From Candidatus Hydrogenedentales bacterium (GTDB lineage: Bacteria > Hydrogenedentota > Hydrogenedentia > Hydrogenedentales > JAEUWI01), in the NCBI GenBank assembly GCA_942492815.1, contig OW818658.1, positions 5,996,284 to 6,060,283 of the forward strand: a DNA stretch of 64,000 bases. Direction: 5' to 3'. Positions 1 to 63,332 of this stretch are shown in pieces (position 1 is the stretch's first letter; every line of letters starts with the position of its first letter). The position numbers and the translations under genes are program-made. The notes under the pieces are model-generated. The model was not told the origin of the DNA. It was given only the letters and a program-made list of their open reading frames with translations, and made no database searches.

Positions 1-501
1 GCCTATCTCGGCGAGGGCCTCCGCACGGCCTCCGTGCGCAGCGTCATGGCCACCTTTACGCTCAAACTCAAACCGGCCCATCTGGACATCATCATGGACA
101 GCTTCCCCGGTTTCACGCGCATCCTCTGCCGCCAGTTTGCCCTGCGCCTGCGCGAGGCCAATGTCTTCATAAAGCGCTACCAGACCAACAACACCATGGC
201 TGTGGAGCAGCGATTCCTGAGCCCTGGCGAAGTGCTCGTGGACGCGGGTGCCCCGGCCGACAAACTATTCCAGCTCGTGGACGGCGTGTTGCTCGAAAAG
301 GGCGACCCCGATACGTCCATCCGAGCTTCGGACGACGGTCCCGTATTCGTCGGGACGCGTCCCTTCTTCAAAGGTGGTACCCATGAAAAGCGCGTAGTGG
401 CGAAGACGCAGGCCATAATCGTCGCCCTGGGCAAATCCCGCGAGGCGGCCATCATTCGCAACTTCCCCGAGCTCGCTCTGGAGTTGATCAGAGAGCCATA
501 G
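1..501 (+). CDS. cyclic nucleotide-binding domain protein, 5' partial (open at window start); phosphate-binding-cassette-like RTASVRSV and a second cNMP-like domain (GEVLVDAGAPADKLFQLVDGVLLE)
   Basis: Frame 1 is open from nt 1 with no upstream stop. The motifs fit the cNMP-binding (CAP-family effector) fold. The stop codon lies immediately before the start of repeat array A. Confidence 0.55.
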   Translation, partial: AYLGEGLRTASVRSVMATFTLKLKPAHLDIIMDSFPGFTRILCRQFALRLREANVFIKRYQTNNTMAVEQRFLSPGEVLVDAGAPADKLFQLVDGVLLEKGDPDTSIRASDDGPVFVGTRPFFKGGTHEKRVVAKTQAIIVALGKSREAAIIRNFPELALELIREP

Positions 502-1500
502 GGACGTACCGCCGCAAGCGCACTGCGAGCAGGAAAAGTGAAACCACGGGCACTCTCGCCGCGTCTTCGAGCGCAGCGCACCACAGCGCGGAGGCATGTC
601 CCTGGGGATGTAACGTCGCGACGTGAACGTCGAAGTTGCCAAACGGGAAGTTACTTTTCTTCCCCGTCATCCCACCCATCCACCGGGACAGGCCCACGCA
701 TCAAACACACGCCGTCAATGGTAAACGGCTTTTGCTGCATCGAGTTTTTCGCGCTATCGGACGACTATTGAGCGCGGGTCCGTCCCTTGGGGACGTACCG
801 CCGCAAGCGCACTGCGAGCAGGAAAAGCGAAACCACAGGCATTCTCGCCGCGTCTTCGAGCGCAGCGCACCACAGCGCGGAGGCATGTCCCTGGGGATGT
901 AACGCAGCGACGTGAACGTCGAAGGTGTCGAGCAGGAAGTCTCTTTTCTTCCCCGTCATCTCACCCATCTACTGGGACAGGCCCACGCATCAAACACACG
1001 CCGTCAATGGTAAGCGGCTTTTGTCGTATCGAGTTCTTCGCGTTATCGGACAACTCTTGAGCGCGGGTCCGTCCCCAGGGGACGTACCGCCGCAAGCGCA
1101 CTGCGAGCAGGAAAAGTGAAACCTCAGACACTCTCGCCGCTTCTACGAACGCAGCGCACCACAGCGCGGGGGCATGTCCCTGGGGATGTAACGCCGCGAC
1201 GTGAACGTCGAAGGTGTCGAGCGGAAGGTGACCTCTCATTCCCGTCATCGCACCCATCCACTGGGGACGTACCGCCGCAAGCGCACTGCGAGCAGGAAAA
1301 GTGAAACCTCAGACACTCTCGCCGCTTCTACGAACGCAGCGCACCACAGCGCGGGGGCATGTCCCTGGGGATGTAACGCCGCGACGTGAACGTCGAAGGT
1401 GTCGAGCGGAAGGTGACCTCTCATTCCCGTCATCGCACCCATCCACTGGGGACGTACCGCCGCAAGCGCAATGCGCGGAGGCAAAGCAAGGCCACAACGA
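501..1500. repeat. composite direct tandem repeat array A. Units are 184-296 bp and mosaic (a short unit with or without a ~100 bp insert), about 5 units. The last two 184-bp units are identical. Contains the palindrome CGCGACGTGAACGTCGAAG.
   Basis: Seen directly: the unit start GGGACGTACCGCCGCAAGCGCACTGCGAGCAGGAAAAG recurs at ~501, 797, 1078, 1263 and 1447. The array sits between the cNMP gene stop and the RAYT stop. Confidence 0.9.
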
Positions 1501-1503
1501 CAA

Positions 1504-2130
1504 TTACTTGTCGGGCAGCCATCGCTTGAAGTAGGTCCGATCACCGAGAGGTTTTCCATTTCGCGTATGTTGCCGGATCTTCTCCAGAAAGCCCTTGTTT
1601 TCCATCTCTACCGTCAGGCCGTCTCGCCATTCGGAATCCGCGAAATGGCTGAACCATCGATTCAAATCGAGCAGAGTATCGTGATCGCGACTGCCACAGT
1701 GCGCAGGAGCACTGGACCACGTGTAGTCCCACGGCAATGCAACCATTCCGGCTCTCACCGGATTCAATTCGACATAGCTCAACGCGCTAACTATGTGGTC
1801 CAAATCCATCGGGCAGGAGTAAAATCGCCCATGCCAGAGATGGCCAAAACGCCCGTACTTCTGATTGATGTAGCTGGCGTGCTCAAGCTGCGAAGACTTC
1901 ATGGCCCGGCTTAAGCTCTCCTTCTCAGCCGGTACTGCAACGATATGTATGTGGTTGGTCATGAGGCAGTAGCCGAGAATACGTACGCCGTATTCCTGGC
2001 TGTACTTCTCCAGGAGATTGATGTAGCGCATTCGGTCTTCGTCTTCGAAAAAGACCGGCTCTCGATTGTTTCCTCGATGGGTAATATGGTGCGCAACCCC
2101 GGGAAGCACTATGCGTTGTTCGCGTGGCAT
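1504..2130 (-). CDS. REP-associated tyrosine transposase (RAYT, TnpA_REP; IS200/IS605-like Y1 HUH transposase)
   Basis: 208 aa. Carries the HUH motif (MTNHIHIVAV) and a catalytic Tyr region (WHGRFYSCPMD), typical of the Y1 transposase / RAYT family. Flanked on both sides by repeat arrays. Confidence 0.85.
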   Translation of the reverse strand: MPREQRIVLPGVAHHITHRGNNREPVFFEDEDRMRYINLLEKYSQEYGVRILGYCLMTNHIHIVAVPAEKESLSRAMKSSQLEHASYINQKYGRFGHLWHGRFYSCPMDLDHIVSALSYVELNPVRAGMVALPWDYTWSSAPAHCGSRDHDTLLDLNRWFSHFADSEWRDGLTVEMENKGFLEKIRQHTRNGKPLGDRTYFKRWLPDK

Positions 2131-2159
2131 AGCAGCAGGGTATCGAGCATGCTCGGGTT

Positions 2160-3215
2160 TGTCAAGACTTGACGTGAACGTCGAAATCGCCGAGCGGGAA
2201 GTCTCTTTTCTTCCCCGTCATCCCACCCATCCACCGGGACAGGCCCACGCATCAAACACACGCCGTCAATGGTAAACGGCTTTTGCCGTATCGAGTTTTT
2301 CGCGCTATCGGACGACACTTGGGCGCGGGTCCGTCCCCCAGGGGACGTACCGCCGCAGAGGCCCCATACCAAATCAGAAAGCACCCGAATCTGATGCCTG
2401 TTCCAACAGGGCGCAGCGCACTACAGCGCGGGGGCATGTCCCTGGGGATGTAACGCCGCGACGTGAACGACGAAGGTGTCGAGCAGGAAGTCTCTTTTCT
2501 TCCCCGTCATCTCACCCATCCACCGGGACAGGCCCACGCATCAAACACACGCCGTCAACGGTAAACGGCTTTTGCTGCATCGAGTTTTTCGCGCTATCGG
2601 ACGACACTTGAGCGCGTGTCCGTCCCCCAGGGGACGTACCGCCGCAGAGGCCCCATACCAAATCAGAAAGCACCCGAATCTGATGCCTGTTCCAACAGGG
2701 CGCAGCGCACCACAGCGCGGAGGCATGTCCCTGGGGATGTAACGTCGCGACGTGAACGTCGAAGTTGCCAAACGGGAAGTTACTTTTCTTCCCCGTCATC
2801 CCACCCATCCACCGGGACAGGCCCACGCATCAAACACACGCCGTCAATGGTAAGCGGCTTTTGTCGTATCGAGTTCTTCGCGTTATCGGACAACTCTTGA
2901 GCGCGGGTCCGTCCCCAGGGGACGTACCGCCGCAAGCGCACTGCGAGCAGGAAAAGTGAAACCTCAGACACTCTCGCCGCTTCTACGAACGCAGCGCACC
3001 ACAGCGCGGGGGCATGTCCCTGGGGATGTAACGCCGCGACGTGAACGTCGAAGGTGTCGAGCAGGAAGTCTCTTTTCTTCCCCGTCATCTCACCCATCTA
3101 CTGGGACAGGCCCACGCATCAAACACACGCCAGCAAAGGCAATCGGCTCCTGCCGTATTGAGTTATCGCGCTATCGGACGACACCGGGGCGCGGGTCCGT
3201 CCCTTCGGCCATCCT
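2160..3215. repeat. composite direct tandem repeat array B. Same family and orientation as array A, about 4 units. The last unit overlaps the 3' end of the GH5-like gene.
   Basis: The same modules recur: GACGTGAACGTCGAAG, CATCCACCGGGACAGGCCCACGCATCAAACACACGCCGTCAATGG and GGGGACGTACCGCCGC. The array ends ~3215, inside the GH5 gene's last ~11 codons. Confidence 0.9.
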
Positions 3216-7500: not shown

Positions 7501-8001
7501 CACTTCCTTCTTGTCCAGCGGTACGGGCAGGCCCCCGTCCGCCACGTGGAAGACGCCTTTCGTCGTGCGCCGGTCGCTGCTCGGGTTGTGCAGCACACCT
7601 TGGGCAATCCGGTAGGAGGACACACACCCGTTCTTGAAGCAGTGCCCGTCCACCGGAAGAGAGAGTTCCCGTGCGAGGCCCGGCCGGTCCAGTACGAACG
7701 TGGTGCTCGGCAGGCGCAGCGGCGCGTGGAGCGTCTCTCCGGCCAGGTACTCCTCCAGAAACGCCTGGATGCGCTGGTCGATGGGGCACAGGTGGCCGCG
7801 CAGGAGACGGCTCTTTTCCTTGTAGCTCTGGATGAGCCCGTCGGTGAGGCCGAGGAACTCGGTGCTGGCCTTGGTATAGGTCGGCAGATCCAGGGCGGCC
7901 AGTTTCAGGCTGATATAACGGACCAAATGCCGGCGTTCGTAGGGCTGGGTATGCCCTTCCTGTAGAAAGGGTAATCGGGCGGTCTGGTTACCTTGCGTCA
8001 C
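4534..8001 (-). CDS. large conserved cytoplasmic protein (1155 aa); possibly a PPi-dependent phosphoenolpyruvate carboxykinase family member (tentative)
   Basis: Single uninterrupted 1155-aa ORF with globular, non-repetitive composition. The size matches the ~1150-aa PPi-PEPCK family, but I cannot verify motifs from memory. The antisense 695-aa ORF is rejected. Confidence 0.75.
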   Translation of the reverse strand: MTQGNQTARLPFLQEGHTQPYERRHLVRYISLKLAALDLPTYTKASTEFLGLTDGLIQSYKEKSRLLRGHLCPIDQRIQAFLEEYLAGETLHAPLRLPSTTFVLDRPGLARELSLPVDGHCFKNGCVSSYRIAQGVLHNPSSDRRTTKGVFHVADGGLPVPLDKKEVPKRVFGNLMVAALNPPRDLLQLPFLAEEDDQAHTMVSLMMRPLVSAEIPGLLPAKTMETRFFVPGSLVSNLDFVETIFGNAGDPTLAENDAALDAEHWTGHTGCVVLAPHLTHLRKKELGLPYFDDATERQRKEGMCWKDEGELYNDGNAFKIACRDDRGVMVTLIADNYFGYCKKEVKTQLSYAANLYGNCEEEHAGGALAYARFNLGDKFFMDFRYTKEGHGFDEMVAKYGELMEVQPEGYAVDRAYPDVIYVPENVHIDLNTQRVYWERDGVEQEIPLRPGYVYLNPDGYNVHMEKHPGAPSWRLVGTGVEGTFCHKPCTVSGGGKSEISKSLLDAVHYGPFFVADYKEDLNRIQAVMAHHFSDRFQDKRIVSKGRPLLAANRSLGSVIRLLTPSEEDYTPEYNAWLNTIPDYVKAMIFIIKRFYRPEWGEDWRSHFSADVINGKPGHELKFNGRKLVASYLRVGLVSDGSWRTYKLRQDFLPAAKIQKEDDISASVVVPASSLSHLCPEYKNPSVKIVDNCEMRLFQRPDDAIHRGHDKQTERDLSEDENFISNFEPLTREDARKLQQHTITFQAYSQPMQDLINRVADSDDIEYFVSSAHPRIVDGAPSKNPRYLQLRPDLTNPRDKYIGEVATRLHRRVPMDKPVLHPVNAVLPGRRNNPPDVKAGIRPLAVYNPIHHQELPELFMDFIASLTGKSPSTTGAGSEGALTKGPFNCLTPTSDLNNALVSYILTEYKSFTTAAGYIGPKYRVDHDVSLLIPEVWCRLSEVERDPAHLLREGCFEKVDDFEYQGETILASRLGYRMTRTFLSHYFGRVFDSPSTVFNDEMLRPELQDMDAYVDGIKNITEAQQRCAQAFFDDGSITAACPPLAALLHIMVHGHYEGKSVQDPEIRKLFTREYLMESDWYHERLRIKQERDCALWKRHIKNLSAFLEKPNYVEEAERLDIVGRLAEAKAELYRLEHPNYLESLKGTLGADPLYRRS

Positions 8002-8246
8002 GGTGAGTGTACTCCCCTGTCGTGTTAAGGGTTGTGCGGTGGTATGCGCGTTGGCGCTCGGGCCCCGGTTGCCGGCTATTGGGTGACCGACCGGGGTTAA
8101 AACAGCGGAAAAAGCCCGTCTGCCTGTGCCCGACCACAGGGATGGAGATGTCCCGGCAATCCTGTATCCTGAGGATCAGGAAGCTTCCCTATTCTAAAGG
8201 ATCGCGGGGGTCATAATCGACCCCGCGATCCCCGATTCAATGAAAA

Positions 8247-12787: not shown

Positions 12788-12841
12788 CGAATGCCGGGTG
12801 CCACCTCAATCGAGCGACGCTCGTTTGGGTGCGTTGAGGGG
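12788..12841 (+). terminator. conserved gene-end motif: CGAATGCCSGGGTGCCACCTCAATC, then a GC hairpin, then GTTTGGGTGC
   Basis: Directly downstream of the YfiT stop. The same motif recurs at 22620 with a different but still palindromic hairpin sequence (covariation). T-rich tail. Confidence 0.4.
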
Positions 12842-22619: not shown

Positions 22620-22676
22620 CCCGAATGCCCCGGGTGCCACCTCAATCCCGCCTCAGCGGGTTTGGGTGCCCTGAGC
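22620..22676 (+). terminator. second copy of the conserved gene-end motif (CGAATGCCCCGGGTGCCACCTCAATC + CCCGCCTCAGCGGG hairpin + TTTGGGTGC)
   Basis: 18 nt after the stop of the 21871-22602 gene. Hairpin CCCGC-CTCA-GCGGG followed by TTTGGG. Confidence 0.45.
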
Positions 22677-35299: not shown

Positions 35300-35599
35300 T
35301 CAGTTTGGCCGTAAGACCTCGGTAATTGGATGAACAATGATGGAGTCCGCCCGCTTTCGCACAAGGCTCAGGTCGTAGTTCATCTGAAGACGCAACCAAC
35401 CATCGGCAGTGCCCCAGCCCATCTTTTCGAGCCGCACAGACATCTCGGGAGATATCCCTGACTTCTCGTTGAGCAGGTTGTTTAATGTTTGTCTTGCCAC
35501 CCCCAGGGCTTTGGCACCATCGGACACGGTAATCCCCAAGGGTTCGAGACAATTGACTCGCACGTGCCGTCCCGGATGCGGTGGGTTCTTCATTGGCAT
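35300..35599 (-). CDS. higA: HigA-family antitoxin (XRE-type HTH)
   Basis: MPMKNPPHPGRHVRVNCLEPLGITVSDGAKALGVARQTLNNLLNEKSGISPEMSVRL matches the HigA consensus (HNPPHPGE...LGV.RQ.L..LLNG...IS.EMA.RL). Confidence 0.85.
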   Translation of the reverse strand: MPMKNPPHPGRHVRVNCLEPLGITVSDGAKALGVARQTLNNLLNEKSGISPEMSVRLEKMGWGTADGWLRLQMNYDLSLVRKRADSIIVHPITEVLRPN

Positions 35600-35613
35600 A
35601 TTCTGCGACTCCC

Positions 35614-35892
35614 TTAGTGATAATCCACAAGATCGATTTCCAAGGCAAGGCCGACCTCGAATCGAAAAACGATGCGCCAGTTTCCAGAAACAATAACGGC
35701 GTACTGACCACGACGGCTACCGCGCAACTCGTGCAGTCGATAGCCAGGTTGTCGCATGTGCTCGATCGTATCTGCGGCGTCTAAATCGGCAAGAATCAAC
35801 TCAATCCTGGCCAGCAGGTTAGGGTTGACCTTACTGACATCACCGTGTTCGTAGAGGCGCTTCAGCCCCTTGTGTTTGAAGCTACCGACCAT
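35614..35892 (-). CDS. higB: HigB toxin (RelE/ParE superfamily mRNA interferase)
   Basis: FKHKGLKRLYEHGDVSKVNPNLLARIE...HELRGSRRGQYAVIVSGNWRIVFRF...VDYH matches HigB. Immediately upstream of higA. Confidence 0.85.
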   Translation of the reverse strand: MVGSFKHKGLKRLYEHGDVSKVNPNLLARIELILADLDAADTIEHMRQPGYRLHELRGSRRGQYAVIVSGNWRIVFRFEVGLALEIDLVDYH

Positions 35893-36020: not shown

Positions 36021-37328
36021 TTACAGCGAAGCCAGCAGCGCTTCCACGTCGGCTTTCGCATCCGTGCCCACAGGCTTGAGGTTGTAGTTCTTCTGCAGCA
36101 GCGCCAGCACGTTGGGCGTGACGAAGGCGGGCAGGTTCGGGCCGAGGTGAATGCCCTGGACGTTCAGATAAAGGAGGGTCAACAGCACGGCCACGGCCTT
36201 CTGCTCGAACCAGCTTATCATCAGCGTGAGGGGCAGGTCATTTACGCCGCAATCGAAGGCTTTCGCCAGCGCCAGGGCCACCTGGATCGCGCCGTAGGCG
36301 TCGTTGCACTGGCCCATGTCGAGGAAGCGGGGCAGGCCCGCCACCGTGCCGTAGTCATAGTCGCGGATGCGGAACTTGCCGCAGCCCAGCGTGAGCACCA
36401 GGGAGTCCATGGGCGTGGCGTGGGCAAAATCGGCGTAGTAGTTACGTCCTGGCTCCGCGCCGTCGCAACCGCCGATGAGAAAGACGTGGCGGATATCGCC
36501 ATCCTTGAAAGCCTTCACCAAGGTGTCCGCCAGATTGAGAATCTGGGTGTAGTGGAAGCCGATCGTGGACTTCTTCAGCTCGGTAGGCTTCAGCGGGCCG
36601 ATTTCCAGCGCGCGCTTGATGATGGGCGTGTAGTCGTTGTCCGTAATCCGCATCGCGCCGGGCACCGCCGTGGTGCGGGTGGTGTAGAAACGGTCGAGGT
36701 AGGTGTTGGAGTCCCAGGGGATCAGCACGCAGTTGGTGGTGCCGAGGATCGGCCCGCCGAAGCGCTCAAATTCCACGCGCTGCTTTTGCCAGGCCGAGCC
36801 GAAGTGGCCCTTGAGGTGGGGGTATTTCTTCAGACCGGGATAGCTGTGGCCAGGGAGCATTTCGCCGTGGGTGTAGACGTTCACGCCCGCGTTGTTGGCC
36901 TGTTCCAGCAGGTCCTTCAGGTCCATCAGGTCGTGGCCCGTGATGAGGATGCCGGGGCCTTCCTGGATGCCTTCGGTCACTTCCGTAGGTTCGGGAAGCC
37001 CGAAATTTTCCACGTGTCCGTCGTTCAGGAGCTGCATGGTTTTCAGGTTCATGCGCCCGCATTCCAGCGCCATCTCCACCAAAGTCATCAGGTCGAAGTT
37101 CACGTTCGTCATGGTGGCGAAGAGAGCCTCTTCGATGAAGGCCTCCACTTCCGGGTCGGTCTTGCCCAGGCGCCGCGCGTGGTGCTTATAGGCCGCCATG
37201 CCCTTCAGGCCATAAAGCAAAATCTTCTGTACGGACTCCACGTCCGCGTCCTTTCCGCAGATGCCGCGATCGACGCAGCCCGTGCCGCGAAAGGTTTGTT
37301 CACACTGGTCGCAATGCATGGTGGCCAT
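36021..37328 (-). CDS. hcp: hybrid cluster protein (hydroxylamine reductase), short class
   Basis: N-terminal MHCDQCEQTFRGTGCVDRGICGK cysteine cluster. 435 aa. Hcp-family motifs throughout. Confidence 0.85.
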   Translation of the reverse strand: MATMHCDQCEQTFRGTGCVDRGICGKDADVESVQKILLYGLKGMAAYKHHARRLGKTDPEVEAFIEEALFATMTNVNFDLMTLVEMALECGRMNLKTMQLLNDGHVENFGLPEPTEVTEGIQEGPGILITGHDLMDLKDLLEQANNAGVNVYTHGEMLPGHSYPGLKKYPHLKGHFGSAWQKQRVEFERFGGPILGTTNCVLIPWDSNTYLDRFYTTRTTAVPGAMRITDNDYTPIIKRALEIGPLKPTELKKSTIGFHYTQILNLADTLVKAFKDGDIRHVFLIGGCDGAEPGRNYYADFAHATPMDSLVLTLGCGKFRIRDYDYGTVAGLPRFLDMGQCNDAYGAIQVALALAKAFDCGVNDLPLTLMISWFEQKAVAVLLTLLYLNVQGIHLGPNLPAFVTPNVLALLQKNYNLKPVGTDAKADVEALLASL

Positions 37329-37537
37329 AAATCCGGTCCTTTTTCCTGTCGCCCCGAGGGGTCGTTAAAGATGTATTTGTGATCTATGTTACACCTCTTT
37401 TCAGGATTTTGCAAGCGGTATGCTTAACAAACGCACGCGGCGTGGGCAGGTGGCGGGCACTACGATGGGACTGCTCTGGAAATAAGCGGTCACGACGCGA
37501 AGAGGTATGTGATGACTACCGTCAACGCTGGAACTTA

Positions 37538-37577
37538 CCCCCCCTCCCCCCCCGCAAGCGGGGGGGGTAGGGGGGGT
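37538..37577. repeat. G/C homopolymer palindrome C6TC9-GCAAGC-G8TAG7 (hairpin / G-quadruplex-prone) in the hcp upstream region
   Basis: Seen directly: CCCCCCTCCCCCCCCCGCAAGCGGGGGGGGTAGGGGGGG. Confidence 0.9.
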
Positions 37578-37738
37578 AAAGCTCGGATATGACTTCCACC
37601 CTCTATGGGTGACGCGAAGCGTCATGAATGACTGTCCAGAAAAGGCGGCGGTGAAGAGCGGGATTGGCGCTGAAAGGTAGTCAACCGCAAGGAGGTGGAC
37701 GTAGGCGGGTGGGCGGGACTGTCCCACGCTGTTAAAGT

Positions 37739-38240
37739 CGCGGGACAGTCCCGAATGGCACTAACTTAAGGGCAATGCCTGGATGCTTCAACGGGTAACC
37801 TGGGGTGCCACCCTCAAACGCAATCGCGTAGCGATGAAGTTTGTGGGTGTTGGGATTTCACCGTGTGACACGATTTTCTTTGAAAATTGGAGCCTCTTCA
37901 CCCACAAGTCGCGACCGCCGGTGGCGGGGGTTCGAGAAAGAAAACGCCGGGCTGTAGTCTTCAGGCTGTAGGAAGTTGTGTTCGGCTATTGAGTGAACTG
38001 TGTTTGGTTAAAGTCACCTCACCCACAAAGTTCCCCCGCTTCGCTCCTCCCTTTGAGGGTGGCACCCGCAGGGCCCTAAGGGGATCTGGGTGGGGCTTGG
38101 GTCGGTTGAAGTCCGGTGTTTTCTTAGCAGCAGCTCCCCCGCTGCGCTCCTCTGCTTGAGGGTGGCACCCGCCATTAACTTCGAAAAGCTTAGAGCGCCT
38201 TTCTCTTATGTTAGTGCCATTCGGGACAGTCCCGAACGCG
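37739..38240. mobile_element. MITE-like non-autonomous element, ~500 bp, with ~28-bp terminal inverted repeats (CGCGGGACAGTCCCGAATGGCACTAAC / GTTAGTGCCATTCGGGACAGTCCCGAACGCG) and an inner inverted repeat (GGGGTGCCACCCTCAA / TTGAGGGTGGCACCC); no ORF
   Basis: Terminal inverted repeats seen directly. The GGGACNGTCCC palindromic core is shared with the tandem array at 57.1-57.8 kb. Additional GGGAC(A/T)GTCCC copies flank it at 37711 and 38309. Confidence 0.6.
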
Positions 38241-38325
38241 CAGGAGGCCGCGGCGCTCCAGAAAGTTCATGCGGCACGCATTCGCAATGCGTACTCCAGG
38301 TGCCTTGGCGTTCAGGACAGTCCCG

Positions 38326-39960
38326 TCACTTCTCGATGTAGAAATCCTGAAAGCGGTGGTAGCCCAGCAGATTGGGAACATAACCCTTCACTTCCGGGGC
38401 TTGGAGGTACTTCCGGGTGTAAAAGTAAATCGGGACGATGGGTAGATCCTCCAGCACGATGTCTTCGGCCTGCTTCAGCAAAGCAAAGCGCTTGGCGGTG
38501 TCGGGCTCGGCGTAGGCCTGCTGGATGAGGGCGTCGTAGGCCGGGTTGGCGTAGCCGGTGCGGTTATTGCCGCCATCGGTGAGCCACATCTCCAGGAAGT
38601 TCATGGGGTCCATCACATCGCCGATCCAGGCGGCGCGGGCGAGGTCGTAGTCCAAGCTGTTGGTGCTGTCGAGGTAGACCTTCCAATCCTGATTCAACAG
38701 TCGCACTTCCAGGCCGAGATTCTTCCGCCACATCTGCTGCATGACTTCGGCAATCTTCTTGTGCTGCTCGGAGGTGTTGTAGAGAATCTCCACGGGTGGC
38801 AGACCTTTGCCGTCGGGGAAGCCGGCCTCGGCCAGGAGCGCCTTGGCTTTTTCCGGATTGAACTCCAGGCGGGGCGTCCCCTCATAGCCCGGAATGCCCG
38901 GGGGCACATAGCTCGCTGCCGGCGTCTGCCCGCCCTTGGTCACGTTGCGGGCAAGTTCCTCTCGATCCGTCGCCAGCGACAAAGCCTGGCGCACGCGCTT
39001 GTCGTTGAAGGGTGGGCGCGTGGTGTTGAGGCGATAGAAATAGACGCCCAGGTAGGGATCGATATGGATGAGTCCCGGATCTTTCTCCCGATACTCCGCG
39101 ATTTTGTGCTCGGGGACGTCGCCGGTCAACTGGATCTTGCCGGAACGGAAACTACGTTCTTCGGTGCTCAGATCGTCGATGGGATAGAACTCGATACCAT
39201 CGAGCCGGACCTTGTCGCGCTCCCAATAGTGATCGTTGCGCGCGACCCGGATGATTTCATTCGGACTCCACTCCGTAAGGCGGAAGGGGCCGTTGCTCAC
39301 GTGATTCCCGCCCCGTGTCCACGGCGTACCCCGTTCATCCATTCGTCCGTAGGCCTCGATGGTGGCCTGATGCACGGGAAACCACGCCTGGTGAATCTGC
39401 ATGGCGAGCAGGTACGGCGTGGGGTATTCCAGCGTAAGTTCCAGCGTGTGATCGTCGATAGCCTTCGCGCCCACCTCGTCAATATTCGTTATCGTGCCCT
39501 GATTGAAGCCTTTCGCATTCTTGAGGCAGAAGAGCAGGTAGGCGTAGTCCGCCGCCAGTGCCGGGCTCAGCATGCGCTTGTAGCTGTAGATAAAATCCTT
39601 CGCCGTCACCGGATCGCCGTTAGACCACTTGCCATCAGCCCGCAATTTGAAGGTGTAGACCCGTTTGTCCTCCGAAATGGTCCACGACTCCGCCGCTGCC
39701 GGTAAGGGATCAAAGGTTGCCGGATCGACCCCGGTGAGTCCGTCAAACAACGAGGCCAGCACGCGATGTTCCGGCACGCCCGTCACCAGATGGGGGTCGA
39801 GATCTTTCACTTCGGCGTTGATGTTAATCCTGAGCACCTTCGCCGATTCCGTCGCCGAACCGGACTCCCCGCCCTGTACATCTTCTTTCGGAGAGCCGCC
39901 GCACCCCGCCAGAAGCAGTGTTGCGACGCCGATTACGGTATAAACGGAAAACTTGCGCAC
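38326..39960 (-). CDS. ABC transporter substrate-binding lipoprotein, family 5 (oligopeptide/dipeptide-binding, OppA/DppA-like)
   Basis: Lipobox LLLAGCGG. SBP_bac_5 architecture. GTG start preceded by AGGAA chosen. The repeat motif GGACAGTCCCGTCA abuts the stop codon. Confidence 0.8.
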   Translation of the reverse strand: MRKFSVYTVIGVATLLLAGCGGSPKEDVQGGESGSATESAKVLRININAEVKDLDPHLVTGVPEHRVLASLFDGLTGVDPATFDPLPAAAESWTISEDKRVYTFKLRADGKWSNGDPVTAKDFIYSYKRMLSPALAADYAYLLFCLKNAKGFNQGTITNIDEVGAKAIDDHTLELTLEYPTPYLLAMQIHQAWFPVHQATIEAYGRMDERGTPWTRGGNHVSNGPFRLTEWSPNEIIRVARNDHYWERDKVRLDGIEFYPIDDLSTEERSFRSGKIQLTGDVPEHKIAEYREKDPGLIHIDPYLGVYFYRLNTTRPPFNDKRVRQALSLATDREELARNVTKGGQTPAASYVPPGIPGYEGTPRLEFNPEKAKALLAEAGFPDGKGLPPVEILYNTSEQHKKIAEVMQQMWRKNLGLEVRLLNQDWKVYLDSTNSLDYDLARAAWIGDVMDPMNFLEMWLTDGGNNRTGYANPAYDALIQQAYAEPDTAKRFALLKQAEDIVLEDLPIVPIYFYTRKYLQAPEVKGYVPNLLGYHRFQDFYIEK

Positions 39961-40076
39961 AGGGAAATTCCTTCCTGGTTTATGCAAAAACTCACGGTTG
40001 CTTCTGGGCACGGGGGCCATGTGCCGCGCCAAGTATTATAAATGTATTCGCGGCTGGGGTTAAAACCGTATCGGCC

Positions 40077-43599: not shown

Positions 43600-43903
43600 T
43601 CAACAGCGGCCTTCAATGAAATTGTAAGATGTTGCAATTAAAGGTGTTGCAAAAACTAAATCAATTTTTTTACTTTTGAGACCGCCGATGAGCCTGTAAA
43701 ATAAGGGCGATTTCGCACCCAAAAAAATTTTAGCATTGAAAATAGGGCTTGACAAATCATTATTTAGACGTTAATCAATACACCATTGCTGAAGGCGCTT
43801 CCGGTAGTTGCGCGCAGCACCGGAGAGAGCATACGTCTGTCGCGTATCTTGGGCCGGCGCCGACAGCTTCCAAGACCAATTCGATTTCAAAGGAGAAACG
43901 ACC
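43600..43903 (+). promoter_or_regulatory. AT-rich promoter/leader region of the HU-like gene, with a TTGACA -35-like hexamer at ~43749 and two TTGCAA direct repeats at ~43633-43655
   Basis: Local GC drops sharply. AGGAG ribosome-binding site 8 nt upstream of the ATG. The -10 element is not convincing. Confidence 0.35.
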
Positions 43904-44224
43904 ATGACCATTAAGAAAGCCAAGCCGACCGACAAGGCCCTCACGAAGTCCAAAGTGATCGAAGCCCTGGCCGAAGAAACCCAGCTTTCGAAGAAAGACG
44001 TCGGTACTGTCCTCGCGGCGCTGACCGAGCTGTCCTACGCGCAGGCCGCCGTGGGTTTCACCATCCCCGGCCTCGGCAAGCTGGTCGTCCAGCAGCGCAA
44101 GGCGCGCAAGGGCCGCAACCCGAAGACGGGCGAGACCATCAAGATCGCTGCCAAGAAGGTGCTCAAGTTCCGCATCGCCAAGGCCGCGAAAGACGCGATC
44201 ACGCCCGCCAAGGAAAAGAAATAA
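43904..44224 (+). CDS. HU/IHF-family DNA-binding protein with a Lys-rich N-terminal extension
   Basis: VIEALAEETQLSKKDVGTVLAALTE...GFTIPGLGKLVVQQRKARKGRNPKTGETIKIAAKKVLKF is a classical HU fold sequence. Confidence 0.85.
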   Translation: MTIKKAKPTDKALTKSKVIEALAEETQLSKKDVGTVLAALTELSYAQAAVGFTIPGLGKLVVQQRKARKGRNPKTGETIKIAAKKVLKFRIAKAAKDAITPAKEKK

Positions 44225-44290: not shown

Positions 44291-44413
44291 TTGACAATGT
44301 ACAATTGACAATGAAAAGACTGAGCAACCTGCCAGCCAGAGATTTTCCGCCCGATTCTCATTGTCAATTGTCAATTGTCAATTGTCAATTGTCAATTGTC
44401 AATTGTCCATTGT
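44289..44413. repeat. heptamer repeat element: AATTGACAATGTACAATTGACAATG, then a 45-nt spacer, then (CAATTGT)x7 in inverted orientation. The tandem part overlaps the 3' end of the TolC-family gene.
   Basis: Seen directly. The tandem heptamers encode the C-terminal ...NNGQLTIDN of the 44385-45803 gene. Confidence 0.9.
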
Positions 44414-57109: not shown

Positions 57110-57812
57110 CCCGGGGGGGGACCGTCCTGCACGAACAAAATCGCCTTCCGCAAGTGCCGCGTTGCAACAGGAAGTACCCTCCAACCGAGGGAGATCAACC
57201 ACCCGTGCGGGACCGTCCCCCGCTTTAAAAGCGCGGGACGGTCCCGAACGCGCAGAGGTCTTGCGGCGCGCTGCCGTGATTCGCACGACCCACGGACCTC
57301 ACCCGTGACACCGTTGCCCGGACGTTCAGGACGGTCCCGTCGTAACGCGGGGACTGTCCTGCACGAACAAAATCGCCTTCCGCAAATGCCGCGTTGCAAC
57401 AAAAAGCACCCTCCAACCGAGGGAGATCAACCACGCGTGCGGGACCGTCCCCCGTTTTAAAAGCGCGGGACGGTCCCGAACGCACAGGGGGCTGCGGCAG
57501 GCTTCCGTGGTCCGTATGACCTGCGGACCTCACCCGTGACCCCGGTGCCCGGACGTTCAGGACGGTCCCGTCGTAACGCGGGGACTGTCCTGCACGAACA
57601 AAATCGCCTTCCGCAAATGCCGCGTTGCAACAAAAAGCACCCTCCAACCGAGGGAGATCAACCACGCGTGCGGGACCGTCCCCCGTTTTAAAAGCGCGGG
57701 ACGGTCCCGAACGCATAGTGTGCTTCGTCCAACCGGGTTTCACCGATCGAACCACACTACCTATCATAAATCAAGAGCCCCTGCGTTCAGGACGGTCCCG
57801 TCGTTGCGCTAT
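57110..57812. repeat. direct tandem repeat, ~240-bp unit x ~2.6 copies, each carrying several GGGAC(C/T)GTCCC palindromes (related to the MITE-like terminal inverted repeats at 37.7 kb)
   Basis: Unit boundaries at ~57113, 57353 and 57593. Motifs CGCGGGACGGTCCCGAACGC, CGTTCAGGACGGTCCCGTCG and GGGGACTGTCCTGCACGAAC recur. Confidence 0.9.
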
Positions 57813-61329: not shown

Positions 61330-61419
61330 AGTCTGTCGCACATACGCCACGATTGTTGATGCATGTCATAGTGACCAATGGTACAATGGCGAAGAGGTAG
61401 AATCCCGAGGAGGCCGCGC

Positions 61420-61635
61420 GTGTCAAACATCAAGAAGCAAATTGTGACCGACGAAAGCGGCCGCCCGATAGCCGTTCAGATTTCCTACGACGACTGGGTT
61501 CGGCTGGAGGCACGATTGGCCGAGAAAGGCGAGCCGCCCGCAAAGACCGGCGATCTGAGCAAGCACTTCGGAGTCATGCCGCTCCGCTTCGACCCCATGG
61601 AGTTTCAGCAACGGGCACGTAGCGAATGGCCGTAG
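61420..61635 (+). CDS. type II antitoxin (VapB/Phd-like) paired with the downstream PIN toxin
   Basis: Small ORF with GTG start after a GAGGAGG ribosome-binding site. Overlaps vapC by 10 nt. Motif QIVTDESGRPIAVQISYDDW. Confidence 0.6.
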   Translation: MSNIKKQIVTDESGRPIAVQISYDDWVRLEARLAEKGEPPAKTGDLSKHFGVMPLRFDPMEFQQRARSEWP

Positions 61636-62024
61636 GCCAGGTGCTCGATACCAACGTCGTGCTCTACCATCTTGGCGGACGATTGGCGGAGCCAATTAGC
61701 GGCACGCAGTGCTGCGTGTCTATTGTCACGCAATTGGAACTCCTGTCATATCCGGACATCACTCCAGCGGAAGAATCATTCATCCGCACCTTCCTGGCGG
61801 ACCTCACCATTGTCGACTTGAGTTCGGAAATTTGTCAGTCAACGGTCTATCTCCGCCGGGCCTATCGCTTGAAGCTTCCCGACGCTATCATTTGCGCCAC
61901 CGCTCTCGCGCTGAATGCAACGCTTTTGACAAACGACAAGCAACTTGCGGCAGTCTCCGAAATCCGCATGGAACGTGTAGCCCTCAGTTCCCAGGAAGGA
62001 CAGGGCACCCCAGACCCCAACTAG
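61626..62024 (+). CDS. vapC: PIN-domain ribonuclease toxin
   Basis: LDTNVVLYHL (first conserved Asp). ...TNDKQLAA (C-terminal acidic residue). 132 aa. Confidence 0.75.
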   Translation: MAVGQVLDTNVVLYHLGGRLAEPISGTQCCVSIVTQLELLSYPDITPAEESFIRTFLADLTIVDLSSEICQSTVYLRRAYRLKLPDAIICATALALNATLLTNDKQLAAVSEIRMERVALSSQEGQGTPDPN

Positions 62025-62069
62025 CAAGGGGCAAGAACGGGAATCACATTGAGAAAGGGAGGCCTTGTG

Positions 62070-63332
62070 ATGAAATCGATTAGAAACCCGCTTCTTGTAC
62101 TTGACCGGAAATCCTGGCCGGGGGGCTTTCGCCTATTCCCGATCGCATTGCTCGCGGTGCTGGCGGCGGGTTGTTCGTTGGAGCCCACTCACAAGATCTA
62201 TTACACCGAGACGGTGTCCGCCGTGGATTCCACAAATAAAGTGGGCGTCGACATTTACAAGATCCTGGCAAAAGACGAGGGAAATCTGTGCATCTCGCCG
62301 CTGAGCATCGCGATGAACCTTTCGACCGTCCTGGCCGGCGCGCGCGGGAAGACGGCGAATGAGATCAACGCCGTCCTGGGCATCCCGCCGGGCGGTGGCA
62401 TTCACGAAGGGTTCAGCGAACTTCGCGCGATGATCGAAGGGAGCAACTCCGAGGATTGCCAGACGATATTGGCCAATGTGCTGGCGTATCAGGAAGGCAT
62501 GGACCTGAACGCCCAGTTTTTGGGAATTCTGGACAAGAATTATTCTGCCGCACGACTTCCATTGAATTTCGCGAATCGCTCGGACGATGCGAGGGATCGG
62601 CTGAATACCTGGATCGCAGAAAACACGAAGGGCCGAATCCGGGGCTTTTTGACGGGGGACGATATAACTCCGTACACCAGGGTTATACTTGCGAACGCTC
62701 TTACCTTCGACGCCAAGTGGGATCGGGAATTTGATCCGAAGGTTACAAAGGAAGCACCGTTTTTCCCGGAAGACGAGCGCGAAGTATCCGTTCCCATGAT
62801 GAAGCGGAAAGGTGTCTTCCGCTTATCGGCTCCAGCGGACGGCGTTCAAGTTCTTCGCCTGCCCTATCGCGGAGGACAAGTGGAAATGGTACTGGTGCTG
62901 CCCGTAATGGGTGAAAAACTGAAAACGGTGGAACGGGCGCTTTCCGCCCGGCAGCTTCAACAATGGGTAGATCAGTGCCAGAGCGAGCCATCCGAGGTTT
63001 ACTTACCACGTTTCACAGGTCATACACGTAGCGATCTGCTGGGCGCGCGCTCCCAATTAGGCATGGCATGCGCGTTCAAGCCGACTTGCGCCGACTTTTC
63101 GGGCATCACAAGCGAGCCCTACCACGTTGGTCTGGTAAAGCATGGCTGTTACGTGGAGGTGGATGAGGAAGGCACCAAGGCGGCGGCAGTAACCGCAACT
63201 GGGTTGCTCGGTGGCGGGGCCGGAGATGAATTTCGCGCCGTCCGGCCCTTCCTGTATTTCATCCGCGAAACCACGTCCGGAGCAATCTTGCTGATGGGGC
63301 GTGTCACGAATCCGATGGCGCTGGAAACGTGA
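62070..63332 (+). CDS. serpin-family serine protease inhibitor, lipoprotein
   Basis: Lipobox LAAGCS. Serpin motifs NALTFDAKWDREF, hinge EEGTKAAAVTATG and C-terminal FLYFIRETTSGAILLMGRVTNP. Confidence 0.85.
   Translation: MKSIRNPLLVLDRKSWPGGFRLFPIALLAVLAAGCSLEPTHKIYYTETVSAVDSTNKVGVDIYKILAKDEGNLCISPLSIAMNLSTVLAGARGKTANEINAVLGIPPGGGIHEGFSELRAMIEGSNSEDCQTILANVLAYQEGMDLNAQFLGILDKNYSAARLPLNFANRSDDARDRLNTWIAENTKGRIRGFLTGDDITPYTRVILANALTFDAKWDREFDPKVTKEAPFFPEDEREVSVPMMKRKGVFRLSAPADGVQVLRLPYRGGQVEMVLVLPVMGEKLKTVERALSARQLQQWVDQCQSEPSEVYLPRFTGHTRSDLLGARSQLGMACAFKPTCADFSGITSEPYHVGLVKHGCYVEVDEEGTKAAAVTATGLLGGGAGDEFRAVRPFLYFIRETTSGAILLMGRVTNPMALET

Follow-up and report, generated by a model that had tools for sequence, protein, structure and literature searches.

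What kind of DNA is the segment of about 500 bp around positions 37739–38240 of a 64,000-nucleotide stretch (hereafter the window) of a Candidatus Hydrogenedentales genome, which carries no evident gene and is bounded by inverted arms? The original prediction had described it as resembling a miniature inverted-repeat transposable element (MITE) with perfect 28-bp terminal inverted repeats, and had joined it with a tandem array beside a pilin-like gene into one modular family of non-autonomous elements. Our analysis points to a more specific answer that we regard as probable: the segment is a non-coding miniature transposon of the MITE type, with ends like those of the insertion sequence (IS) family IS4, flanked by an 11-bp target-site duplication.

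37753–38222, no strand assigned: the miniature transposon proper, 470 bp, with inverted repeats GAATGGCACTAACTTAAG
37742–37752, no strand assigned: left copy of the target-site duplication, GGGACAGTCCC, identical to 38223–38233
38223–38233, no strand assigned: right copy of the target-site duplication, GGGACAGTCCC, identical to 37742–37752

The bounding inverted arms do exist, at 37741–37778 and 38197–38234 (38 nt, 87% complementary), but they are not perfect, and what had been read as a single 28-bp repeat is really an 11-bp duplication joined to a repeat of about 18 bp resembling the end of IS4. The outer part, GGGAC-N-GTCCCGAATGGCACTAAC, is the same at both element ends except for its central N; this base is an A on the plus strand at both palindrome centres, so that the palindromic part is a direct and not an inverted repeat. 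Moreover, GGGACNGTCCC, itself a palindrome, is the 11-bp target-site duplication and lies outside the terminal inverted repeat, the true repeat starting at GAATGGCAC, because a 113-bp deletion restores the frame of an endolysin gene that holds another copy (locus L132, below; L numbers denote fetched comparison loci). Since the target is palindromic, its duplication resembles an extension of the inverted repeat, and as a general caution such a duplication is easily misread as part of the repeat.

In the register set by the duplication, the element end reads GAATGGCACTAACTTAAGG; the end pairs can be written GAATGGCAC...GTGCCATTC, and the inverted repeats proper (GAATGGCACTAACTTAAG at 37753–37770 against the complement of 38205–38222) match at 17 of 18 positions. 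The 11-mers on the two sides are identical in the window, L005 and L132 and agree at 10 of 11 positions in L004, and the shorter duplication that the original prediction had in mind, TTAA-like or of 2–9 bp outside the 28-bp repeat, is found neither in the window nor in L004 or L005. The element folds as one long hairpin (z = -7.5 and -6.7 for the two strands) and contains a 41-nt duplication whose copies lie 103 bp apart. A gene call based on G+C content at third codon positions (GC3) places no gene in 37364–38326, in keeping with the earlier description of an ORF-less segment (ORF, open reading frame); the short ORFs of the window segment are not common to its 300-bp and 102-bp relatives, and indeed no ORF is common to the copies, which range from 102 to 470 bp.

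These relatives bear out the expectation that the terminal ends would recur. An exact scan for GGGACNGTCCCGAATGGCACTAAC with one genome per species (185,579 species genomes) returned two loci only, both in one Hydrogenedentales metagenome-assembled genome (MAG; JBHEKR01): these copies, L004 and L005, measure about 300 bp and are laid out like the element of the window, and all three fold as a single long hairpin on either strand (z -6.7 to -10.2). Among viral contigs, the palindrome plus GAAYG (GGGACNGTCCCGAAYG) was matched at 72 loci, 71 of which hold a single match without the GAATGGCAC extension, about the number that we estimate chance would provide, while the remaining locus, L132, holds two inverted matches 108 bp apart. 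Four further viral matches to the 18-nt end were set aside as chance: they lie in low-GC contigs without a partner end.

L132 7740–7841, no strand assigned: 102-bp element with GGGACTGTCCC on both sides, inside an M15 endolysin gene (7573–8243)

L132 is a phage-like contig with portal-like and terminase-like ORFs (from inspection of their translations) and an endolysin identified by Pfam and PDB matches; the splitting of this gene by a 102-bp element may mean a defective phage or prophage, or else an insertion that happened very recently. The inverted repeats of this copy match at 17 of 19 positions. Deleting 113 bp, that is, the element and one GGGACTGTCCC, yields a single 185-amino-acid ORF, which aligns without a break over the joint (uninterrupted sequence ...CAATGGGACAGTCCCCTGATG...) to the Listeria phage Ply500 L-alanyl-D-glutamate peptidase 2VO9 (E = 7e-20) and regains the Pfam domain Peptidase_M15_4 across it, while deletions of 102 or 124 bp destroy the frame. 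The insertion site is GGGAC-N-GTCCC in 4/4 copies, with unrelated flanks.

This clean insertion bears directly on an alternative in which the segment has no transposition of its own and is a mosaic, formed by recombination, slippage and duplication among dispersed palindromic repeats, so that the flanking palindromes are neighbouring repeat copies. Such repeats are abundant in the region, the pilin-side array has plainly expanded by tandem duplication, the element holds its own 103-bp internal duplication, a pair of hairpin modules (M, below) is tandemly repeated at L015 with a 390-bp period, and the window locus offers no clean empty site. Yet the L132 copy interrupts a protein-coding gene at a locus with no other perfect palindrome of this kind, its removal restores the frame exactly, and the same ends stand at four unrelated loci; we consider a mosaic quite unlikely.

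The ends also suggest a family. The IS4 subgroup has the end pattern -AATR--------WTW---- and direct repeats of 10–13 bp (PMC2266710 Table 1), and a striking target specificity has been remarked for it (PMC2266710). The element fits 7/7 constrained positions of this pattern, with GAATG as positions 1–5 and TTA as positions 14–16, and its 11-bp duplication falls within the subgroup range. Against the IS4 copy of E. coli K-12, which has the ends TAATGCCGATCAGTTAAGG and TAATGCCAGTCAGTTAAGC and a 12-bp duplication, the window element is identical to the repeat TAATGCCGATCAGTTAAGG at 13 of 19 positions, the TTAAG block included, in a register fixed by the duplication; by our own binomial estimate, which was not computed by a tool, the probability of the end match is about 1e-4.

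From this assignment of the ends to a family we infer an IS4-type DDE mechanism, and with it the family of the transposase and a cut-and-paste chemistry. A DDE transposase, supplied from elsewhere by an insertion sequence of the IS4 family, would bind the inverted repeats, excise the element and paste it into GGGAC-N-GTCCC through an 11-bp staggered cut, which would leave the palindrome on both sides in direct orientation. The target in the window was one palindrome of a repeat unit resembling repetitive extragenic palindromic (REP) sequences and bacterial interspersed mosaic elements (BIMEs), the pilin-side 231-bp array is an expanded version of that repeat, and the element carries an inverted pair of M hairpins and one partial M duplicate.

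The element lies within a larger block of DNA, in a minus-strand gap between genes that measures about 1 kb. The G+C content of the window is 61%, and the nearest proteins to those of its genes come from Candidatus Hydrogenedentes MAGs.

38326–40032, minus strand: family-5 solute-binding-protein gene, upstream of the gap, which its stop codon (38326–38328) borders
36021–37328, minus strand: hybrid-cluster protein gene hcp, downstream of the gap
37460–38324, no strand assigned: strain-specific composite block, 865 bp, bordered by the stop of the solute-binding-protein gene and by the conserved promoter region of hcp
37535–37579, no strand assigned: hairpin of a C-run and a G-run inside the block, with 19-nt arms that are 95% complementary

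Two close relatives, L002 and L003, whose hcp products share 98% and 97% amino acid identity with that of the window, align on both sides of the block and carry in its place 56–62 bp with an intrinsic hairpin-plus-T terminator. As the block is absent from both, the 865 bp are a recent strain-specific composite, not one simple insertion; the search for empty sites in relatives, which the original prediction had proposed, thus finds strains without the block but no clean empty site. The C-run/G-run hairpin (TTACCCCCCCTCCCCCCCC / GGGGGGGTAGGGGGGGTAA) is unusual and not present in the relatives. The sequence after the stop codon reads TGACGTTTTCGTTTTGAACGCC in L003 (693–720) and TGACGGGACTGTCCTGAACGCC in the window (38309–38328), and the common TGAACGCC suggests the former presence, in L003 too, of a palindrome now decayed or of an older repeat.

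The palindrome that serves as target (P) is a repeat in its own right. With up to one mismatch, GGGACAGTCCC gives 28 strand-hits in the window against 1.7 expected, a number reached by 0 of 100 shuffles, and the perfect form GGGAC-N-GTCCC occurs nine times, at two loci only.

37712–37755, no strand assigned: P–P hairpin, inverted GGGACTGTCCC (37715) and GGGACAGTCCC (37742) around the loop TGTTAAAGT
37715 (perfect) and 38314 (AGGACAGTCCC), no strand assigned: outlying palindromes from the palindrome search
38234–38324, no strand assigned: b-type unit, made of GAACGCGCAGG, about 70 variable nt, GGCGTTC and AGGACAGTCCC, abutting the upstream-gene stop at 38326–38328
57117–57803, no strand assigned: REP/BIME-like pilin-side array, 231-bp period, 2.6 copies

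The outlying palindromes correspond to those previously placed near 37711 and 38309, and the palindromic core is present in the pilin-side array in 2.6 copies as claimed, but with a period of 231 and not 240 bp. In this array (tandem part 57117–57715, 94% matches; last palindrome at 57789–57799) a P4–P1 hairpin, linker a, a P2–P3 hairpin and linker b follow one another with P in alternating orientation; the P–P hairpins (loops TTTAAAAGC and TCGTAACGC) alternate with linkers of 70–85 nt, and the P copies around linker b pair with each other. The hairpin at 37712–37755 is the P2–P3 module of the array (DNA fold -17.1 kcal/mol, z = -6.5), and deletion of 37756–38236, which amounts to the element at 37753–38222 and one duplicated palindrome, leaves GTCGCGGGACAGTCCCGAACGCGCAGG, colinear with an uninterrupted array unit. 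The same layout is known from REP doublets, from REPINs (REP doublets forming hairpins) and from BIME-type arrays, in which compensatory hairpin changes are common too (PMC3116915; PMC2817692). The pilin-side array is accordingly REP/BIME-like and related to the element through the target palindrome only; it does not consist of element copies. The earlier idea of a modular family of non-autonomous elements holds in that a MITE-like element sits in a modular repeat mosaic, but the array and the GGGTGCCACCCTCAA motif discussed below are separate repeats.

At the pilin locus itself, the three contigs L048–L050, in which the downstream TauE gene is 94% identical, hold one P1–linker a–P2–TTTTAAAAG–P unit in a gap of 252 bp, against 806 bp in the window. 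No P palindrome occurs in the corresponding gap of L053–L055, nor anywhere in the contigs L051–L052, where the TauE gene has different neighbours. The b-type units of the window element's surroundings, the array and L004 have only their ends in common (GAACGC... and ...CGTTC), their interiors being unrelated; the palindromes flanking the unit at 38234–38324 pair with each other (fold z = -4.6), and units of this type may represent decayed copies or another, tiny family of elements.

One gene for a mobile-DNA enzyme was found in the window, and it introduces a second alternative.

1507–2130, minus strand: REP-associated tyrosine transposase (RAYT)-like HUH Y1 gene, Pfam Y1_Tnp 2e-14
501–1486 and 2171–3203 (span 501–3203), no strand assigned: arrays of 289-bp units that bracket the RAYT gene, with the joint palindrome GCGCGGGTCCGTCCCC-A-GGGGACGTACCGCCGC

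The best NCBIfam match of this protein is REP_Tyr_transpos, whose 64 bits fall short of the 80-bit cut-off but lie well above the 19 bits of IS200, and a profile of 21 homologues has as its best PDB match E. coli TnpA-REP 4ER8 (1.2e-5), ahead of IS200-type enzymes; the HUH motif (NHIH) and the catalytic tyrosine (Y..NP) are invariant in all 21. The gene has its own TTGACA promoter, and the two flanking arrays share one orientation. In five other Hydrogenedentes contigs (L056–L060), homologues have on either side the same set of three boxes with GGGAC, CCTGTCCCGG, GGGACATnCC and GGTACGTCCC, and neither P nor M is present in these contigs. By eye, the gene appears to sit at a unit joint in L056 (4890–5640) and L059 (4850–5570), between the halves of a ...GGTACGTCCC / GGGACGGAC... 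palindrome. The longest contigs for many of the listed homologues are only about 1 kb, and we suspect that assemblies break at the repeats beside the gene.

A single-strand HUH enzyme, for example this RAYT, could cleave the tips of GGGAC-N-GTCCC hairpins and join segments ending in half-palindromes (GTCCCGAAYG...CRTTCRGGAC), the palindrome being rebuilt on both sides as a recombination joint. Several features fit: the gene lies in the window between palindrome-rich arrays, whose joints are P-like (14/15 identity to P2); units with unrelated interiors have the common ends GTCCCGAACG and CGTTCAGGAC, and the constant A of AGGAC looks element-borne; the extra DNA of the pilin locus stands between the halves of a palindrome that is single in relatives; and the M stem has an invariant A-A mismatch, conserved stem mismatches being recognition features of Y1 transposases (PMC8266576). 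The RAYT and P are connected, however, only through the array joints, each of which differs from a P site at one position, and in all five contigs with homologues the flanking boxes are of another kind, neither P nor M. The RAYTs characterised so far need a GTAG tag, and the CT at which they cleave lies next to the hairpin and outside its loop (PMC8266576); neither feature is evident here. CGTC follows the P4 copies of the array and is present at 38324, but not at the other P sites, and GTAG is absent. The 11-bp duplication and the IS4-like ends, on the other hand, explain the same joints through two independent matches to a known family. Compared with this model centred on the palindrome, the L132 insertion and the IS4-like ends allow a simpler explanation; we regard the model as unlikely, and the RAYT is a side finding, at most a weak candidate for moving P or M and not the partner of the IS4-like element.

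Units of unrelated content with the same ends, arrayed and with the palindrome regenerated at each joint, also recall integron-like cassettes, for whose movement a site-specific recombinase of the tyrosine or serine type would use the palindrome as core site. Tyrosine recombinase sites, however, have spacers of 6–8 bp, where the palindrome here has one central base; the window yielded no recombinase gene, and the ends look like those of IS4, which makes cassettes highly improbable.

The interior of the element holds a repeat of a different kind. As had been noticed before, GGGTGCCACCCTCAA forms a second inverted pair with one arm duplicated, at 37803 (plus), 38053 (minus) and 38156 (minus), against 0.2 occurrences expected; the two minus copies, 103 bp apart, lie inside the 41-nt duplication. 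These motifs are part of an independent hairpin module of 48–52 nt, M, which belongs to a separate and far more widespread repeat family, REP-like and dispersed between the genes of Hydrogenedentes-type genomes.

37803–37853, minus strand: M with a diverged loop and the inner stem ATCGC/GCGAT (covariance model R1, 46 bits, E = 4e-11)
38016–38067, plus strand: canonical M, CACCCACAAAG-TTCCCCCGCTTCGCTCCTCC-CTTTGAGGGTG-GCACCC (R1, 80 bits)
38121–38170, plus strand: 5'-truncated M from the 103-bp internal duplication (R1, 33 bits)
12796–12835, minus strand: short M-like hairpin, 34 nt past a gene stop (R1, 20.8 bits, E = 8e-4)
22632–22672, minus strand: short M-like hairpin, 29 nt past a gene stop (R1, 18.6 bits, E = 3e-3)

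The last two recover, through the covariance model, the related motif that had been reported at 12796 and 22628: they carry GGGTGCCACCTCAA, one C fewer, at 12796 and 22632. Altogether R1 matches M five times in the window and 72 times over 250 kb of loci, and finds none in the closest relatives of the window. A metagenome scan with the conserved core gave 42 contigs and, with the window, L004 and L005, 60 instances, from which M emerges as sharply bounded (CACCCACAA[AG][CG]TTCCCCCGCT[TG]CGCTCCTC[CT][GC][TC]TTGAGGGTGGCACCC), with a stem of 11 positions, an invariant A-A mismatch and a nearly invariant 20-nt loop. Two base pairs show compensatory changes (AU 16 / GC 14 and CG 27 / GC 4), and 98.8% of stem cells are paired; not one of 500 shuffles attained as much, nor did any slid register. 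Copies of M lie between genes in either orientation, and among the gaps that hold them the convergent ones outnumber the divergent ones by about 11 to 2 in our count.

Most copies of M have neither the P palindrome nor IS4-like ends, and other contigs (L011, L019, L033, L038 etc.) hold it in 300–350-bp arrays with other palindromes, GGGGCNGTCCCC and GGTGCAGTCCCC; the palindromes in those arrays include GTCGGGGCTGTCCCCCTC and a perfect GGTGCAGTCCCC-GGGGACTGCACC. The L132 element has the same ends and no M, and the shells outside the M pair in the window sum to 102 nt, the full length of the L132 element, so that M looks like cargo or a nested insertion. Some leads were discarded: GTCCC as a general tag upstream of M was found in only 6 of 43 contexts, and what seemed a long duplication around the M pair of L015 is a 25-nt direct repeat that merely reflects the 390-bp tandem array. 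A gene between M copies in L028 has, by eye, no recognisable transposase features. GCGAAGC/GCTTCGC recurs at the M-loop centres in both element arms and in TGACGCGAAGCGTCA at 37606 (37606–37620); d(GCGAAGC) is an unusually stable DNA mini-hairpin.

The covariation raises the question of whether the host selects a structured RNA or a 3'-end element (terminator, insulator or mRNA stabiliser) here, rather than tolerating selfish DNA. Besides the compensatory changes and the invariant loop, the repeat blocks of the window, L004 and L005 start 0–7 nt past a TGA stop, convergent gaps are preferred, and the block replaced an intrinsic terminator of the relatives. On the other side, no Rfam family matches at any threshold, both orientations relative to the flanking genes occur, the two strands fold equally well, there is no terminator-like T run, and presence varies among close strains, with one copy disrupting a gene. 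The original prediction had named compensatory changes in other taxa as grounds for preferring a structured RNA; such changes were found for the inner M hairpin, and they are no argument against mobile DNA, because REPIN hairpins covary in the same way (PMC3116915). A host-selected RNA or 3'-end element is thus very unlikely to explain the segment.

A broader possibility takes in all these repeats. The P palindromes, the b-type units and M, whose loop is common to populations with different flanking palindromes, might form a new repeat system specific to Hydrogenedentes, in which segments ending in half-palindromes are shuffled at hairpin tips by a Y1/HUH enzyme, or in which M is a functional element at the protein or RNA level, conserved across genomes, the IS4-like element being a mere outer shell. 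We find this doubtful, if somewhat less so than the alternatives above.

Several points weigh against the IS4-type miniature transposon that we favour. Firstly, the similarity to IS4 ends is modest, amounting to 13/19 positions and a 7-position consensus. Secondly, the window holds no transposase for the element, the sole mobile-DNA enzyme there being the Y1 transposase; tblastn with IS4 InsG found nothing in 1.1 Mb of fetched loci, and the exact-end scan of the species genomes yielded only the two further miniature copies, so that an autonomous IS with matching ends, the partner postulated by the original prediction, was found in none of the three. Thirdly, the right palindrome of the b-type units is AGGAC, never GGGAC, at every locus, a pattern that simple duplication would not lead one to expect, and in place of a clean empty site at the window locus 865 bp stand where relatives have 56–62 bp. 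Finally, L132 is a metagenome assembly, and four copies are known in all: one in the 64-kb window, two in the MAG JBHEKR01 and one in the phage-like contig.

The wider surroundings were also surveyed. Rfam 15 gave zero matches at gathering score over the whole window and, at the locus with E up to 10, sub-threshold hairpin noise only and no family; a tRNA scan found none, blastn of the locus against plasmid and phage records gave no match, a literature search on the motif strings found nothing, and promoter and terminator scans of both loci were uninformative. Elsewhere in the window, a perfect 7-bp tandem repeat, ATTGTCA (7.7 copies, 44360–44413), results in overlapping AATTG-N-CAATT palindromes and is flanked by an HU-like DNA-binding protein gene (43808–44224) on one side and by the end of a gene for outer-membrane efflux on the other. 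Two toxin-antitoxin pairs are present: a HigB-like and a helix-turn-helix (HTH) protein at 35300–35892, downstream of hcp, with HigB-like/HTH genes likewise following hcp in L001 and L002, and a RelB-like and a PIN protein at 61375–62024, next to a serpin gene at 62025–63332.

Read in this way, the element is an IS4-type miniature element that targets a host palindromic repeat, well documented yet of an ordinary kind for mobile DNA, in a phylum that has been little studied. Its very strict 11-bp palindromic target and the phage endolysin that one copy disrupts are evidence of active-looking mobile DNA in Hydrogenedentes, for which no cultured model exists, and the locus illustrates how palindromic repeats of the host, a transposon aimed at them and another hairpin repeat can be nested in one another. 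The repeats are usable as strain-typing markers, and, should the transposase be found, so strict a target could be relevant to transposon tools. The M hairpin and the mosaics of palindromes, which are new REP-like families in an uncultured phylum, are the part most deserving of further work.

Among known systems, MITEs derived from IS4, with E. coli IS4 as type element, come closest: they are likewise short, non-coding and hairpin-forming, with -AATR--------WTW---- ends and TTAAG at positions 14–18 as in IS4, and the IS4 subgroup shares both the strong target specificity and a duplication (10–13 bp; 12 bp in the K-12 copy) that accommodates the 11 bp seen here. The window element differs in that no cognate transposase, for this subgroup a DDE enzyme with the YREK motif, was found for it, in that its target is the exact 11-bp palindrome of a host repeat family, in that it has an unrelated hairpin-repeat pair as cargo, and in its host phylum, Hydrogenedentes. 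Pneumococcal BOX and Neisseria Correia elements are, as here, mosaic, hairpin-forming, non-coding units of reusable modules; they have no sequence similarity to the element, Correia elements duplicate TA, and BOX has no defined duplication.

The P palindromes and M hairpins resemble REP, REPIN and BIME sequences in being short and extragenic, in favouring gene 3' ends and in the covariation of their stems, and further resemblance lies in the inverted doublets that form hairpins, the arrays of alternating orientation and the RAYT gene bracketed by arrays in the window. In contrast, the RAYT here is flanked by its own boxes and not by P or M, and the 20-nt, almost invariant loop and fixed 3' tail of M are unusual for a REP. 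Insertion sequences that target REP sequences include IS1397 and IS621. In its specific insertion into a palindromic repeat of the host, the window element also resembles ISPpu9 of Pseudomonas putida (PMC8450116). Such REP-targeting elements, however, are full-length insertion sequences of other families (IS3, IS110), whereas the element described here is a miniature, its ends are IS4-like, and it duplicates the palindrome in full, over 11 bp.

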